From Escherichia coli (GTDB lineage Bacteria > Pseudomonadota > Gammaproteobacteria > Enterobacterales > Enterobacteriaceae): 64,000 nucleotides of DNA. How positions within the stretch are numbered: the first letter of the stretch is position 1; each line of letters starts with the position of its first letter. The DNA lies in the NCBI RefSeq assembly GCF_051903065.1, contig NZ_CP178438.1; one strand, 5' to 3'. A program made the translations under genes and the position numbers. A model generated the notes under the pieces. The model was given only the letters and a program-made list of their open reading frames with translations. It searched no databases and had not been told where the DNA came from. Below, piece by piece: positions 36,569-60,074 of this stretch.

Positions 36569-36581
36569 CCTACATGTTCAT

Positions 36582-37046
36582 GCCGGATGCGGCGTGAACG
36601 CCTTATCCGGCCTACGAATGGCGCAAGAATCTGTAGGCCTGATAAGCGTAGCGCATCAGGCATTTGTCACCATTGCCGGATGCGGCGTGAACGCCTTATC
36701 CGGCCCACGAATGGCACGAGAATCTGTAGGCCTGATAAGCGTAGCGCATCAGGCATTTGTCACCATTGCCGGATGCGGCGTGAACGCCTTATCCGGCCTA
36801 CGAATGGCGCAAGAATTGTAGGCCTGATAAGCGTAGCGCATCAGGCATTTGTCACCATTGCCGGATGCGGCGTGAACGCCTTATCCGGCCCACGAATGGC
36901 ACGAGAATTTGTAGGCCTGATAAGCGTAGCGCATCAGGCATTTGTCACCATTGCCGGATGCGGCGTGAACGCCTTATCCGGCTTACGAGTGGCACGAGAA
37001 TTTGTAGGCCTGATAAGCGTAGCGCATCAGGCAATTTGGCGTTGGT
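36582..37046. repeat. tandem REP/BIME array, 5 units of about 93 bp
   Basis: Five near-identical tandem units each containing GCCGGATGCGGCGTGAACGCCTTATCCGGCCTAC and GTAGGCCTGATAAGCGTAGCGCATCAGGC palindromic units. Confidence 0.85.
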
Positions 37047-37082
37047 CACAACCCCATCACCCTCTGTAGCGGACATAACAAC

Positions 37083-43706: not shown

Positions 43707-44763
43707 GGCTTTGTTGAATAAATCGAACTTTTGCTGAGTTGAAGGATCAGATCACGTATCTTCCCGACAACGCAGACCGTTCCGTGGCAAAGCAAAAGTT
43801 CAAAATCACCAACTGGCCCACCTACAATAAAGCCCTCATCAACCGTGGCTCCATAACTTTCTGGCTGGATGATGAAGCTATTCAGGCCTGGTATGAGTCA
43901 GCAACACCTTCTTCACGAGGCAGACCTCAGCGCTATTCTGACCTTGCCATCACGACTGTGCTGGTCATTAAACGCGTATTCAGGCTGACCCTGCGCGCTG
44001 CGCAGGGCTTTATTGATTCCATTTTTTCTCTGATGAACGTTCCGCTACGCTGCCCGGATTACAGCTGTGTCAGCAGGCGGGCAAAGTCGGTTAATGTCAG
44101 TTTCAAAACGCCCACCCGGGGTGAAATCGCACACCTGGTAATTGATTCCACCGGGCTGAAGGTCTTCGGTGAAGGCGAGTGGAAAGTCAAAAAGCATGGC
44201 CAGGAACGCCGCCGTATCTGGCGTAAGCTGCATCTCGCCGTTGACAGTAAAACACATGAAATCATCTGCGCTGACCTGTCGCTGAACAACGTTACGGACT
44301 CAGAGGCCTTCCCCGGGTTAATCCGGCAAACCCACCGGAAAATCAGGTCAGCCGCCGCCGATGGCGCTTACGATACCCGGCTATGTCACGATGAACTGCG
44401 GCGTAAGAAAATCAGCGCGCTTATCCCTCCCCGAAAAGGTGCGGGTTACTGGCCCGGTGAATATGCAGACCGTAACCGTGCAGTGGCTAATCAGCGAATG
44501 ACCGGGAGTAATGCGCGGTGGAAATGGACAACAGATTACAACCGTCGCTCGATAGCGGAAACGGCGATGTACCGGGTAAAACAGCTGTTCGGGGGTTCAC
44601 TGACACTGCGTGACTACGATGGTCAGGTTGCAGAGGCTATGGCCCTGGTACGAGCGCTGAACAAAATGACGAAAGCAGGTATGCCTGAAAGCGTGCGTAT
44701 TGCCTGAAAACACAACCCGCTACGGGGGAGACTTACCCGAAATCTGATTTATTCAACAAAGCC
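43707..44763 (+). mobile_element. IS903-type insertion sequence (IS5 family, 1057 bp) with 9-bp target-site duplication TCCCCGATG
   Basis: 18-bp terminal inverted repeats GGCTTTGTTGAATAAATC at 43707-43724 and 44746-44763; identical 9-mers at 43698-43706 and 44764-44772; left-end sequence matches the remembered Tn903/IS903 end. Confidence 0.85.
43784..44707 (+). CDS. IS903-type DDE transposase (GTG start, 307 aa)
   Basis: ORF 43739-44707; GTG at 43784 gives the 307-aa length I recall for IS903 transposase. Confidence 0.8.
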   Translation: MAKQKFKITNWPTYNKALINRGSITFWLDDEAIQAWYESATPSSRGRPQRYSDLAITTVLVIKRVFRLTLRAAQGFIDSIFSLMNVPLRCPDYSCVSRRAKSVNVSFKTPTRGEIAHLVIDSTGLKVFGEGEWKVKKHGQERRRIWRKLHLAVDSKTHEIICADLSLNNVTDSEAFPGLIRQTHRKIRSAAADGAYDTRLCHDELRRKKISALIPPRKGAGYWPGEYADRNRAVANQRMTGSNARWKWTTDYNRRSIAETAMYRVKQLFGGSLTLRDYDGQVAEAMALVRALNKMTKAGMPESVRIA

Positions 44764-47569: not shown

Positions 47570-47868
47570 GTTGTATTCGACAACCGATGCCTGATGCGCC
47601 GCTGACGCGACTTATCAGGCCTACGGGGTGTACTGAACTGTAGGTCGGATAAGACGCATGGCGTCGCATCCGACAACCGATGCCTGATGCGTCGCTGACG
47701 CGACTTATCAGGCCTACGGGGTGAACTGAACTGTAGGTCGGATAAGACGCATGGCGTCGCATCCGACAACCGATGCCTGATGCGCCGCTGACGCGGCTTA
47801 TCAGGCCTACGGGGTGTACTGAACTGTAGGTCGGATAAGACGCATGGCGTCGCATCCGACAACAATCT
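47570..47868. repeat. tandem REP/BIME array, about 3 units
   Basis: Three about 100-bp tandem units containing GCCTGATGCGCCGCTGACGCGACTTATCAGGCCTAC and GTAGGTCGGATAAGACGCATGGCGTCGCATCCGAC. Confidence 0.8.
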
Positions 47869-50596: not shown

Positions 50597-52483
50597 ATGT
50601 CTTTTAGCGAATTTTATCAGCGTTCGATTAACGAACCGGAGCAGTTCTGGGCCGAGCAGGCCCGGCGTATTGACTGGCAGACGCCCTTTACGCAAACGCT
50701 CGATCACAGCAATCCGCCGTTTGCCCGTTGGTTTTGTGAAGGCCGAACCAACTTGTGCCACAACGCTATCGACCGCTGGCTGGAGAAACAACCAGAGGCG
50801 CTGGCGCTGATTGCCGTCTCTTCGGAAACAGAAGAAGAGCGCACCTTTACCTTTCGCCAGCTGCATGACGAAGTGAACGCGGTGGCGTCAATGCTGCGCT
50901 CGCTGGGCGTGCAGCGTGGCGATCGGGTGCTGGTGTATATGCCGATGATTGCCGAAGCGCATATTACCCTGCTGGCCTGCGCGCGCATTGGCGCTATTCA
51001 CTCGGTGGTGTTTGGTGGATTTGCCTCGCACAGCGTGGCGGCGCGAATTGATGATGCTAAACCGGTGCTGATTGTCTCGGCTGATGCCGGAGCGCGCGGT
51101 GGCAAAATCATTCCCTATAAAAAATTGCTCGACGATGCGATAAGTCAGGCGCAGCACCAGCCACGCCATGTTTTGCTGGTGGATCGCGGGCTGGCGAAAA
51201 TGGCGCGCGTCAGCGGGCGGGATGTCGATTTCGCGTCGTTGCGCCATCAACACATCGGCGCGCGGGTACCGGTGGCGTGGCTGGAATCCAACGAAACCTC
51301 CTGCATTCTCTACACCTCCGGCACGACCGGCAAACCTAAAGGCGTGCAGCGTGACGTCGGCGGATATGCGGTGGCGCTGGCGACCTCGATGGACACCATT
51401 TTTGGCGGCAAAGCGGGCGGTGTGTTCTTTTGTGCTTCGGATATCGGCTGGGTGGTGGGGCATTCGTATATCGTCTACGCGCCGCTGCTGGCGGGGATGG
51501 CGACTATCGTTTACGAAGGATTACCGACCTGGCCGGACTGCGGCGTGTGGTGGAAAATCGTCGAGAAATATCAGGTTAGCCGGATGTTCTCAGCGCCGAC
51601 CGCCATTCGCGTGCTGAAAAAATTCCCTACCGCTGAAATTCGCAAACACGATCTTTCGTCGCTGGAAGTTCTCTATCTGGCGGGGGAGCCGCTGGACGAG
51701 CCGACCGCCAGTTGGGTGAGCAATACGCTGGATGTGCCGGTCATCGACAACTACTGGCAGACCGAATCCGGCTGGCCGATTATGGCGATTGCTCGCGGTC
51801 TGGACGACAGGCCGACGCGTCTGGGAAGCCCCGGCGTGCCGATGTATGGCTATAACGTGCAGTTGCTTAATGAAGTCACCGGCGAACCGTGTGGCGTTAA
51901 CGAGAAAGGGATGCTGGTGGTGGAAGGGCCGCTGCCGCCGGGGTGTATTCAGACCATCTGGGGCGACGACGACCGCTTTGTGAAGACGTACTGGTCGCTG
52001 TTTTCCCGCCCGGTGTACGCCACCTTTGACTGGGGCATCCGCGATGCTGACGGTTATTACTTTATTCTCGGGCGCACTGACGATGTAATTAACGTTGCCG
52101 GGCATCGGCTGGGGACGCGCGAGATTGAAGAGAGTATCTCCAGTCATCCGGGCGTTGCCGAAGTGGCGGTGGTTGGGGTGAAAGATGCGCTGAAAGGGCA
52201 GGTGGCGGTGGCGTTTGTCATTCCGAAAGAGAGCGACAGTCTGGAAGATCGTGATGTGGCGCATTCGCAAGAGAAGGCGATTATGGCGCTGGTGGACAGC
52301 CAGATTGGCAACTTTGGCCGCCCGGCGCACGTCTGGTTTGTCTCGCAATTGCCAAAAACGCGATCCGGAAAAATGCTGCGCCGCACGATCCAGGCGATTT
52401 GCGAAGGACGCGATCCTGGGGATCTGACGACCATTGATGATCCTGCGTCGTTGGATCAGATCCGCCAGGCGATGGAAGAGTAA
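50597..52483 (+). CDS. prpE: propionyl-CoA synthetase
   Basis: 628-aa ORF, AMP-forming acyl-CoA synthetase motifs (YTSGTTGKPKG). Confidence 0.9.
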   Translation: MSFSEFYQRSINEPEQFWAEQARRIDWQTPFTQTLDHSNPPFARWFCEGRTNLCHNAIDRWLEKQPEALALIAVSSETEEERTFTFRQLHDEVNAVASMLRSLGVQRGDRVLVYMPMIAEAHITLLACARIGAIHSVVFGGFASHSVAARIDDAKPVLIVSADAGARGGKIIPYKKLLDDAISQAQHQPRHVLLVDRGLAKMARVSGRDVDFASLRHQHIGARVPVAWLESNETSCILYTSGTTGKPKGVQRDVGGYAVALATSMDTIFGGKAGGVFFCASDIGWVVGHSYIVYAPLLAGMATIVYEGLPTWPDCGVWWKIVEKYQVSRMFSAPTAIRVLKKFPTAEIRKHDLSSLEVLYLAGEPLDEPTASWVSNTLDVPVIDNYWQTESGWPIMAIARGLDDRPTRLGSPGVPMYGYNVQLLNEVTGEPCGVNEKGMLVVEGPLPPGCIQTIWGDDDRFVKTYWSLFSRPVYATFDWGIRDADGYYFILGRTDDVINVAGHRLGTREIEESISSHPGVAEVAVVGVKDALKGQVAVAFVIPKESDSLEDRDVAHSQEKAIMALVDSQIGNFGRPAHVWFVSQLPKTRSGKMLRRTIQAICEGRDPGDLTTIDDPASLDQIRQAMEE

Positions 52484-52486
52484 GGT

Positions 52487-53130
52487 ATTGTCGGATGCGT
52501 CGCGTGGCGCATCCGACACCATGCGCAGATGCCTGATGCGACGCTGACGCGTCTTATCATGCCTACAGGCCTGAACCGTAGGTCGGATAAGGCGCTCGCG
52601 CCGCATTCGACACCATGCGCCGATGCCTGATGCGACGCAGGCGCGTCTTATCATACCTACAGGCCTGAACCGTAGGTCGGATAAGGCGCTCGCGCCGCAT
52701 TCGACACCATGCGCCGATGCCTGATGCGACGCAGGCGCGTCTTATCATGCCTACAGGCCTGAACCGTAGGTCGGATAAGGCGCTCGCGCCGCATCCGACA
52801 CCGTGTGCCGATGCCTGATGCGACGCTGGCGCGTCTTATCATGCCTACAGGCCTGAACCGTAGGTCGGATAAGGCGCTCGCGCCGCATCCGACACCGTGC
52901 TCAGTGCCTGATGCGACGCTGATGCGTCTTATCATGCCTACAGGCCTGAACCGTAGGTCGGATAAGGCGCTCGCGCCGCATTCGACACCATGCGCCGATG
53001 CCTGATGCGACGCAGGCGCGTCTTATCATGCCTACAGGCCTGAACCGTAGGTCGGATAAGGCGCTCGCGCCGCATCCGACACCATGCTCAGTTGCCTGAT
53101 ACGACGCTGGCGCGTCTTATCATGCCTACC
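52487..53130. repeat. tandem REP/BIME array, about 7 units
   Basis: Seven tandem copies of the GCGTCTTATCATGCCTACAGGCCTGAACCGTAGGTCGGATAAGGCGCTCGCGCCGCATCCGACACC unit between prpE and codB. Confidence 0.85.
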
Positions 53131-53281
53131 CACTGTTTTTACACCGATAATTTTTCCCCCACCTTTTTGCACTCATTCATATAAAAAATATATTTCCCCA
53201 CGAAAACGATTGCTTTTTATCTTCAGATGAATAGAATGCGGCGGATTTTTTGGGTTTCAAACAGCAAAAAGGGGGAATTTC

Positions 53282-54541
53282 GTGTCGCAAGATAACAACT
53301 TTAGCCAGGGGCCAGTCCCGCAGTCGGCGCGGAAAGGGGTATTGGCATTGACGTTCGTCATGCTGGGATTAACCTTCTTTTCCGCCAGTATGTGGACTGG
53401 CGGCACTCTCGGAACCGGTCTTAGCTATCATGATTTCTTCCTCGCAGTTCTCATCGGCAATCTTCTCCTCGGTATTTACACTTCATTTCTCGGTTACATT
53501 GGCGCAAAAACCGGCCTGACCACTCATCTTCTTGCTCGCTTCTCGTTTGGTGTTAAAGGCTCATGGCTGCCTTCACTGCTGCTGGGCGGCACCCAGGTTG
53601 GCTGGTTTGGCGTTGGCGTGGCGATGTTTGCCATTCCGGTGGGTAAGGCAACCGGGCTGGATATTAATTTGCTGATTGCCGTTTCCGGTTTACTGATGAC
53701 CGTCACCGTCTTCTTTGGCATTTCGGCGCTGACAGTTCTTTCGGTGATTGCGGTTCCGGCGATCGCCTGTCTTGGCGGTTATTCCGTGTGGCTGGCCGTT
53801 AACGGCATGGGCGGCCTGGACGCCTTAAAAGCGGTCGTTCCCGCACAACCATTAGATTTCAATGTCGCGCTGGCGCTGGTTGTGGGGTCATTTATCAGCG
53901 CGGGTACGCTCACCGCTGACTTTGTCCGCTTTGGTCGCAATGCCAAACTGGCGGTGCTGGTGGCGATGGTGGCCTTTTTCCTCGGCAACTCGTTGATGTT
54001 TATTTTCGGTGCAGCGGGAGCGGCGGCACTGGGGTTGGCGGATATCTCTGATGTGATGATTGCTCAGGGCCTGCTGCTGCCTGCGATTGTGGTGCTGGGA
54101 CTGAATATCTGGACCACCAACGATAACGCGCTCTATGCGTCGGGTTTAGGTTTCGCCAACATTACCGGTATGTCGAGCAAAACCCTTTCGGTAATCAACG
54201 GTATTATCGGTACGGTCTGCGCATTATGGCTGTATAACAATTTTGTCGGCTGGTTGACCTTCCTTTCGGCAGCTATTCCTCCGGTGGGTGGCGTGATCAT
54301 TGCCGACTATCTGATGAACCGTCGCCGCTATGAGCACTTTGCGACCACGCGTATGATGAGTGTCAATTGGGTGGCGATTCTGGCGGTCGCCTTGGGGATT
54401 GCTGCAGGCCACTGGTTACCGGGAATTGTTCCGGTCAACGCGGTATTAGGTGGCGCGCTGAGCTATCTGATCCTTAACCCGATTTTGAATCGTAAAACGA
54501 CAGCAGCAATGACGCATGTGGAGGCTAACAGTGTCGAATAA
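53282..54541 (+). CDS. codB: cytosine permease
   Basis: 419-aa ORF matching CodB; GTG start. Confidence 0.9.
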
Positions 54542-55852: not shown

Positions 55853-55933
55853 TGCCGGATGCGGCGTGAACGCCTTATCCGGCCTACGTAGAGCACTGAA
55901 CTCGTAGGCCTGATAAGCGTAGCGCATCAGGCA
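55853..55933. repeat. REP element pair
   Basis: GCCGGATGCGGCGTGAACGCCTTATCCGGCCTAC and GTAGGCCTGATAAGCGTAGCGCATCAGGC. Confidence 0.7.
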
Positions 55934-59332: not shown

Positions 59333-59393
59333 GCCGGATGCGGCTAACGTAGAACACTGAATTTGTAGGCCTGATAAGCGAAGCGCATCAGGC
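59333..59393. repeat. REP element
   Basis: GCCGGATGCGGC...GTAGGCCTGATAAGCGAAGCGCATCAGGC. Confidence 0.6.
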
Positions 59394-60017: not shown

Positions 60018-60043
60018 TTCGCTCATTCCGTCCTGATATGTTG

Positions 60044-60074
60044 GTCGGATAAGGCGCTCGCGCCGCATCCGACA
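60044..60074. repeat. REP element between lacY and lacA
   Basis: GGTCGGATAAGGCGCTCGCGCCGCATCCGAC palindrome. Confidence 0.6.

Follow-up and report, generated by a model that had tools for sequence, protein, structure and literature searches.

Arrays of REPs and BIMEs have been known since the 1990s, including their composition of Y and Z2 REPs and the polymorphism of their copy number from strain to strain (Bachellier 1994, 1997, as cited in PMC3333891). A BIME-2 is defined by y and z2 REPs that alternate in inverse orientation, with tandem copies, short linkers, and a copy number that varies with the strain (PMC3333891). Ton-Hoang et al. 2012 likewise reported BIME-2 copy numbers that differ between strains (PMC3333891).

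REP325 is the BIME-2 between yjdM and yjdN and the source of naRNA1-6 and of the Rfam model RF02564. It is an array of 12 hairpins made of Y and Z2 REPs between two same-direction genes (Harris et al. 2026, bioRxiv 10.64898/2026.03.23.713779). It belongs to the longest such arrays of K-12 and has been the subject of experiments. It attenuates the downstream gene ~8- to 10-fold, partly via Rho, and stabilises the upstream mRNA, and its transcripts form a ladder of truncated, hairpin-terminated species (bioRxiv 10.64898/2026.03.23.713779). The same study found that REPs between tandem genes favour upstream expression genome-wide, that REP effects are context-dependent, and that REPs at transcript ends bring no general gain in half-life (bioRxiv 10.64898/2026.03.23.713779). 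The array between prpE and codB resembles REP325 in its alternating tandem Y/Z2 units between genes of the same orientation, and units of both score as naRNA4. It differs in having 14 hairpins, other linkers, and a mismatch-bearing Z2 variant.

The prpE-codB array is an expanded form of the BIME-2 present at this site in K-12 MG1655 and is an already-known kind of element. The two share their flanks, the leading hairpin after the stop codon, the unit of Z2, tail-to-tail linker, and Y, and the tail ATCATGCCTAC in internal Z2 REPs. The K-12 locus contains two Z2 and one Y in an insert of 175 bp, whereas ours contains seven Z2 and six Y in 644 bp. The terminal Z2 of K-12 keeps the canonical tail, ATCAGGCCTAC; our terminal Z2 differs. 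The K-12 annotation table lists only genes at this locus, with no repeat_region features.

The window is the 64,000-nt stretch of Escherichia coli contig NZ_CP178438.1 that we analysed. Gene positions were taken from the RefSeq annotation of E. coli 23CRST027 (NZ_AP045789.1). Over 1.7 kb, the array and its flanks are 100% identical to 23CRST027 and 23CRST031 and 99.9% identical to ECNB21-M121. The array lies in the 3' untranslated region of prpBCDE and ends just before the codBA promoter region (Table 1). Tandem Repeats Finder called it at 52508-53129, with a period of 94, 6.6 copies, 94% matches, and a score of 1097. An independent repeat search gave seven in-register copies at a spacing of 93-94 bp. 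The structured block is longer than the tandem call, as it includes the leading hairpin. The + strand of the array contains 32.8% C versus 29.2% G.

Table 1. Positions in the window of the prpE-codB array, its parts and flanks, and the other REP elements
Feature	Position	Strand	Basis
yahG-yahI array, 5 Y (+) alternating with 5 Z1 (-), period 93, 4.9 copies	36581-37038	.	Tandem Repeats Finder, REP typing
Two "hypothetical protein" CDSs wholly within the yahG-yahI array	36618-36821, 36896-37069		RefSeq
prpB-prpC array, 3 Z2 (+) alternating with 3 Y-like palindromes, period 93, 3.1 copies	47578-47863	.	Tandem Repeats Finder, REP typing
prpE stop codon TAA (prpE is the last gene of prpBCDE)	52481-52483	+	RefSeq annotation of near-identical record; sequence
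Whole prpE-codB BIME-2 array, 14 hairpins, 62% G+C	52489-53129	+	Repeat calls, REP typing, folds
Leading hairpin, TGTCGGATGCG-TCGCGTGG-CGCATCCGACA	52489-52518	+	RNA fold -25.1 kcal/mol, z = -5.0
Z2 REPs (7)	52531-52566, 52625-52660, 52719-52754, 52813-52848, 52906-52941, 53000-53035, 53094-53129	+	Z2 consensus, score fraction 0.83-0.94
Y REPs (6)	52578-52612, 52672-52706, 52766-52800, 52860-52894, 52953-52987, 53047-53081	-	Y consensus, score fraction 0.66-0.71
Five Y-linker-Z2 units matching naRNA4 (RF02564)	52675-52751, 52769-52845, 52863-52938, 52956-53032, 53050-53126	+	65.2-74.1 bits, gathering score 59.5
Promoter-like site TTTGCA-17-TATATT, upstream of codB	53166-53194	+	Consensus scan only
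codB (cytosine permease), downstream of array, same orientation	53282-54541	+	RefSeq annotation, ORFs
Y+Z1 pair between convergent codA and cynR	55853-55932		REP typing
Single Z1 between convergent cynX and lacA	59365-59393		REP typing
Single Y between lacY and lacA	60040-60074		REP typing

For REP typing, all candidate palindromes of the window were aligned with the consensus sequences for Y, Z1, and Z2 quoted in Durrant et al. (PMC11208160). The array contains one partial-Y hairpin followed by seven Z2 REPs in + orientation, which alternate strictly with six Y REPs in - orientation. All REPs have either CTAC at the end or GTAG at the start. In each Y REP the GTAG tetranucleotide is conserved, as is the AA/GC stem mismatch, which is required for binding by TnpA-REP, the REP-associated transposase (Ton-Hoang et al., PMC3333891). 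The Z2 tail is ATCATGCCTAC in six of the seven and ATCATACCTAC in the second Z2. The tail-to-tail linker is AGGCCTGAACC, has 11 nt, and is nearly invariant. The head-to-head linker is CCATGCGCCGA or a variant of it, also of 11 nt.

Whole-array RNA folds gave z = -9.5 for the + strand and z = -12.9 for the - strand. They were not used, as they join distant Y and Z2 units into a single long nested helix. Such a helix is unlikely to form during transcription, and single-REP folds were therefore preferred. Folded singly, Z2 and Y REPs both form hairpins interrupted by internal mismatches, and the Y fold has an internal loop.

The leading hairpin consists of two Y-type REP heads placed face to face and is non-canonical as a REP. 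Its stem is a perfect 12 bp (52490-52517) that starts 6 nt past the prpE stop codon. It was found in all non-B2 alleles examined and in Escherichia whittamii. Alleles of the phylogroup B2 type, such as that of IHE3034, do not contain the head-to-head hairpin. They have a Y REP without GTAG directly after the prpE stop codon (IHE3034 fetched stretch, 1685-1720). The left boundary of the array therefore has two forms within the species.

The initial annotation had called this block a REP/BIME array between prpE and codB, made of units of about 95-100 bp with paired palindromes and no unique spacers. The presence of the array was borne out by the tandem repeat calls and REP typing, and the name by the match of its REPs to the published Y and Z2 consensus and its agreement with the BIME-2 definition. 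The unit proved shorter, at 94 bp. Each unit does contain two inverted palindromes, a Z2 REP (+) and a Y REP (-), and unique spacers are indeed lacking: the tail-to-tail linker hardly changes, and differences in the head-to-head linker are confined to a few sites. Two smaller arrays had also been pointed out, and both are real (yahG-yahI and prpB-prpC, Table 1).

The array is almost certainly a BIME-2, in which REPs of the Y and Z2 types are clustered in tandem. It is so classed because its tandem Y and Z2 layout with short linkers fits the definition in PMC3333891. It occupies an extragenic 3' site, after the stop codon of prpE and before the start of codB. It occurs in tandem copies whose number varies with the strain (6.6 copies here; one to nine Z2 among 116 genomes). 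BIME-1, a single Y and Z1 pair with a long L linker carrying an IHF site, was ruled out: Z1 is absent, the copies are in tandem, and the long L linker is excluded because both linkers have 11 nt. A REPtron, which is rayT flanked by its REPs, was also ruled out, with rayT ~82 kb from prpE in 23CRST027. An intrinsic terminator, a G+C-rich hairpin followed directly by a U tract, was rejected as well: no + strand terminator-like site was found in 52300-53400.

A scan of the window with Rfam gave 11 matches. All were to naRNA4 (RF02564), and all lay within the three arrays. The naRNA4 model was built from a Y-linker-Z2 unit of the REP325 BIME-2 (PMC4550694), and the matches therefore confirm the sequence family and nothing more.

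The yahG-yahI array is an atypical BIME. It resembles the prpE-codB array in its tandem 93-bp unit of two inverted REPs and its strain-variable number (zero to five units), and it is an IS621 target. It differs in being made of Y and Z1, in keeping the IS621 target in Z1, and in attracting spurious CDS calls (yahH). In K-12, "yahH" is annotated in this array. Other genomes have a gene call there only at about three or more units; of the two-unit genomes, one has a call and one does not. The ORFs of the array match no protein family above the cut-off, and the yahH-type calls fit the behaviour of a spurious gene. The prpB-prpC gap is longer by 93 bp, or one unit, in K-12. A frameshifted IS5-family transposase pseudogene lies between yahO and prpR (~43784-44707), where K-12 has no copy. 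It contains a 1-bp indel relative to NZ_AP045789.1, near 44311.

Copy number was surveyed by joining the flanks without the array and searching them with megablast against 5,426 complete genomes. Records were taken at even steps down the ranking. The survey was run twice with different flank lengths, for 2 x 58 = 116 genomes, and the insert was calculated as the span minus the query length. The inserts form a 94-bp ladder. Inserts of ~81-89 bp (one Z2) occurred in 32 of the 116 genomes and inserts of ~170-184 bp (two Z2, including K-12 with 175 bp) in 56, so that one or two Z2 account for ~76% of the sample. Ten genomes had ~269 bp (three Z2). Single genomes had 362 bp (four Z2), 458 bp (five Z2), 551 bp (six Z2), and 831 bp (nine Z2). 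Nine genomes (~8%), mainly O157:H7, had 739-746 bp (eight Z2). Four had ~1,460 bp, interrupted by IS621, and one had an irregular insert that gave no Z2 count. The smallest insert was the leading hairpin plus one Z2, and in no sampled genome was the element wholly absent. Serotype O157:H7 alone has alleles of five, seven, and eight units.

The window allele (644 bp, seven Z2) was not met in the random part of either 58-genome sample. By direct search it was found in 23CRST027, 23CRST031, and ECNB21-M121. At least 11 further complete genomes, O157:H7 and horse isolates among them, have alleles of this length with other unit variants. Its 14 hairpins exceed 12, the stated maximum among annotated K-12 REP elements. 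The longest allele found is that of JNE12-007, with nine Z2 and more hairpins than ours. A small deletion marks the right edge of the JNE12-007 allele (fetched stretch 2520-2545), just upstream of the codB promoter region. The deletion joins the last tail-to-tail linker to GGATAATTTTT, and CCCACTGTTTTTACACC is lost.

The initial annotation had proposed comparing copy number across E. coli genomes and had suggested that the array may be a strain-specific expansion. The comparison bore the suggestion out in essence, as the locus does vary, from one to nine Z2. The seven-unit allele is long, but it is neither the longest, given the eight- and nine-unit alleles, nor private to one strain, as other lineages have alleles of the same length.

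To describe unit variation, nine alleles were fetched and split into units, and variation was scored over 37 full units from eight strains. The Y body is invariant across the 37 units, and the tail-to-tail linker is nearly so. Differences between units fall in the loops of Z2 and Y and in the head-to-head linker. Among stem positions, just two differ in more than two units, a G/A site in the Z2 arm and a C/T site in the Y head. Both still pair in the + strand RNA, where G-U becomes A-U and G-C becomes G-U. No two of the six full units of the window are alike, and each is a different combination of states at a few sites with two to four states. One whole unit is shared with O157:H7 F8798, and none is shared with the long alleles of JNE12-007 and TUM13867. 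The alleles of JNE12-007 and TUM13867 are one internal unit apart (HIJKLLJM versus HIKLLJT).

Unit number behaves as a minisatellite, with one to nine Z2, and probably drifts through unequal recombination. The simplest route for gain and loss would be unequal homologous recombination or replication slippage between the 94-bp units. The unit sequences contradict a single recent burst of identical copies. Their mosaic fits stepwise gain and loss with shuffling by recombination between units, and the pattern would also be compatible with at least two separate expansions.

An alternative route for gain and loss would be strand transfer mediated by RAYT, which has been shown in vitro (Ton-Hoang et al., PMC3333891). 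In 23CRST027, rayT lies between yafL and the lfhA remnant and is split by IS1A (NZ_AP045789.1 585017-586291, ~32 kb before the window start). ECNB21-M121 shares the array allele with 23CRST027 but has an intact rayT. A role of RAYT in the expansion is possible but unsupported here: one array allele accompanies both states of the gene. Coverage of the K-12 rayT region reaches at least 80% in no more than 3,567 of the 5,426 complete genomes. In many of the others, only the flanking REP part of the region matches. Judged from these matches, roughly one third of the genomes may have no rayT or a diverged copy.

The age of the element was approached with a scan for one exact, invariant 29-mer from the unit in a collection of one genome per species, a search blind to single-base differences and to one-Z2 loci. 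It gave one match, in E. whittamii (NZ_JACSQI010000014.1, fetched stretch 5903-6177). The prpE-codB gap of this species contains the same leading hairpin, three Z2, and two Y. Its Z2 tails are ATCATGCCTAC in both internal REPs and ATCACGCCTAC in the terminal one. As the same element and tail variant occur in E. whittamii, both the element and the non-canonical Z2 tail are older than the species split.

The G-to-T change in the Z2 tail makes a mismatch in the outer stem. The target of IS621, a bridge-RNA recombinase element, is missing from all seven Z2 REPs of the window's prpE-codB array. The tails are non-canonical, so the long array gives IS621 no canonical site. The ten exact IS621 targets of the window are all in other REPs (36633-37014, 47614-47810, 55904, 59365). 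In ~3% of the sampled genomes, IS621 lies inside the terminal Z2 of the prpE-codB array (e.g., NZ_CM188749.1, fetched stretch 1683-3298). The junction, ...ATCAGGCCT / IS...AGTATCT / AC, corresponds to the published natural target ATCAGGCCTAC and its CT core. IS621 was also found in the yahG-yahI array of one genome.

The likeliest role of the array, by analogy with REP325, would be that of a local 3'-UTR element that acts as terminator and stabiliser at prpE-codB, and we give this role about an even chance. No + strand intrinsic terminator follows prpE, so the array is the sole structured 3' element before the codB promoter region. A promoter-like site lies 36 bp past the array end. It is followed by ACGAAAACGATTGCTT (53200-53215), which resembles a PurR operator. 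During transcription of prp, the successive hairpins would stop 3'-to-5' exonucleases and would also give partly Rho-dependent attenuation. Together, these effects would stabilise the prp mRNA and limit read-through to codBA. The roles put forward by the initial annotation, mRNA stabiliser, insulator, and recombination substrate, are those that the literature supports for such arrays. The 2026 REP325 preprint mentions neither prpE nor codB (bioRxiv 10.64898/2026.03.23.713779).

Two further effects may be considered. A distance of less than 16 nt between stop codon and REP reduces translation (Liang et al. 2015, as summarised in PMC12306157). The first hairpin, 6 nt from the stop codon, could impede the terminating ribosome and lower PrpE output. 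Applying the 16-nt rule to it is a plausible extrapolation, since the hairpin is a non-canonical REP. BIME-2s are also enriched in gyrase cleavage sites, more so in y than in z2 (PMC6379681). By analogy with other BIME-2s, the Y REPs in the DNA are likely sites of gyrase binding and cleavage, and a gyrase role of the array is plausible. The accessible part of the supplements to that study (PMC6379681) mentions neither prpE nor codB. One or two Z2 suffice in most genomes, so no function can hinge on a long array, and the extra units may be neutral.

It is also possible, if unlikely, that the whole array is neutral, selfish DNA, an old REP insertion resized by slippage, unequal crossing-over, or RAYT and with no meaningful effect on prp or cod. 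The wide range of copy number, variable even inside one serotype, would agree with this, as would the prevalence of short alleles. Insertions of IS621 into the array are tolerated, and the shuffled unit mosaic is what recombination without selection for particular units would be expected to leave. However, the element has been retained since before E. coli and E. whittamii split, and no sampled genome has lost it below the leading hairpin and one Z2. Its stems and Y body have stayed invariant while loops and linkers vary. REP325, moreover, has ~3- to 10-fold effects on its neighbours at its own chromosomal locus. The best overall explanation, a BIME-2 with a drifting unit number, is very likely, and the role proposed above keeps about an even chance.

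Unit number could instead be a heritable, fast-mutating dial, with long alleles (seven to nine units, as in O157:H7 and the window's lineage) kept by lineage-specific selection and not by drift. We regard this as improbable. If it were true, longer arrays would shield codBA better from prp transcription induced by propionate, and PrpE output or local supercoiling could also change.

It is very unlikely that the units are genes for nucleoid-associated RNAs of the naRNA4 kind, bound by HU and bridging DNA cruciforms to condense the chromosome. This was the original model for REP325 RNAs (PMC4550694), and five units of the array do score above the naRNA4 gathering score in the orientation of prpE transcription. 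The Rfam model, however, derives from a BIME-2 unit and will match any Y-linker-Z2 unit, so that a match indicates family and not function. In the 2026 re-examination, deletion or overexpression of REP325 left the nucleoid unchanged, and there was no stable complex of HU, cruciform DNA, and naRNA4 and no REP-REP contact in Hi-C data (bioRxiv 10.64898/2026.03.23.713779).

An expansion or collapse during assembly, which the initial annotation had named as the possible refutation, is a highly improbable source of the seven-unit length. Tandem repeats of 94 bp over 640 bp are difficult for short reads alone. However, the same allele is present in three separate assemblies from two countries: the locus is identical in 23CRST027 and 23CRST031 and nearly so in ECNB21-M121, which comes from an unrelated project in another country. 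The other complete genomes with alleles of this length have different unit variants. The six full units are also all distinct, and an assembler is therefore able to place each.

The initial annotation had further described several long, spurious ORFs in the array. ORFs do exist, they match no Pfam or NCBIfam family above the cut-off, and RefSeq places no CDS in the main array. Those wholly within the array are not long, at 42-92 aa; one ORF of 354 aa, antisense to prpE, merely starts there. A degenerate CRISPR-like array or an array encoding small proteins can be dismissed as next to impossible: CRISPR arrays likewise have short palindromic repeats evenly spaced in an intergenic region, and ORFs of up to 92 aa lie in this one, but it has two different, opposite-facing palindromes, its "spacers" are recurring 11-nt linkers of which none is unique, it has no leader, no cas genes are annotated in window positions 32,000-64,000, its period of 94 is not divisible by 3, its ORF content shifts with unit number, and family matches and RefSeq CDSs are lacking.

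The length polymorphism at prpE-codB, in steps of 94 bp from one to nine units and variable within O157:H7, is a possible typing marker. REP arrays mislead gene callers, as "hypothetical protein" and yahH calls appear only in a yahG-yahI array that is long enough. The natural alleles of one to nine units between same-direction operons provide a ready series for testing REP arrays as tunable terminator and stabiliser elements.
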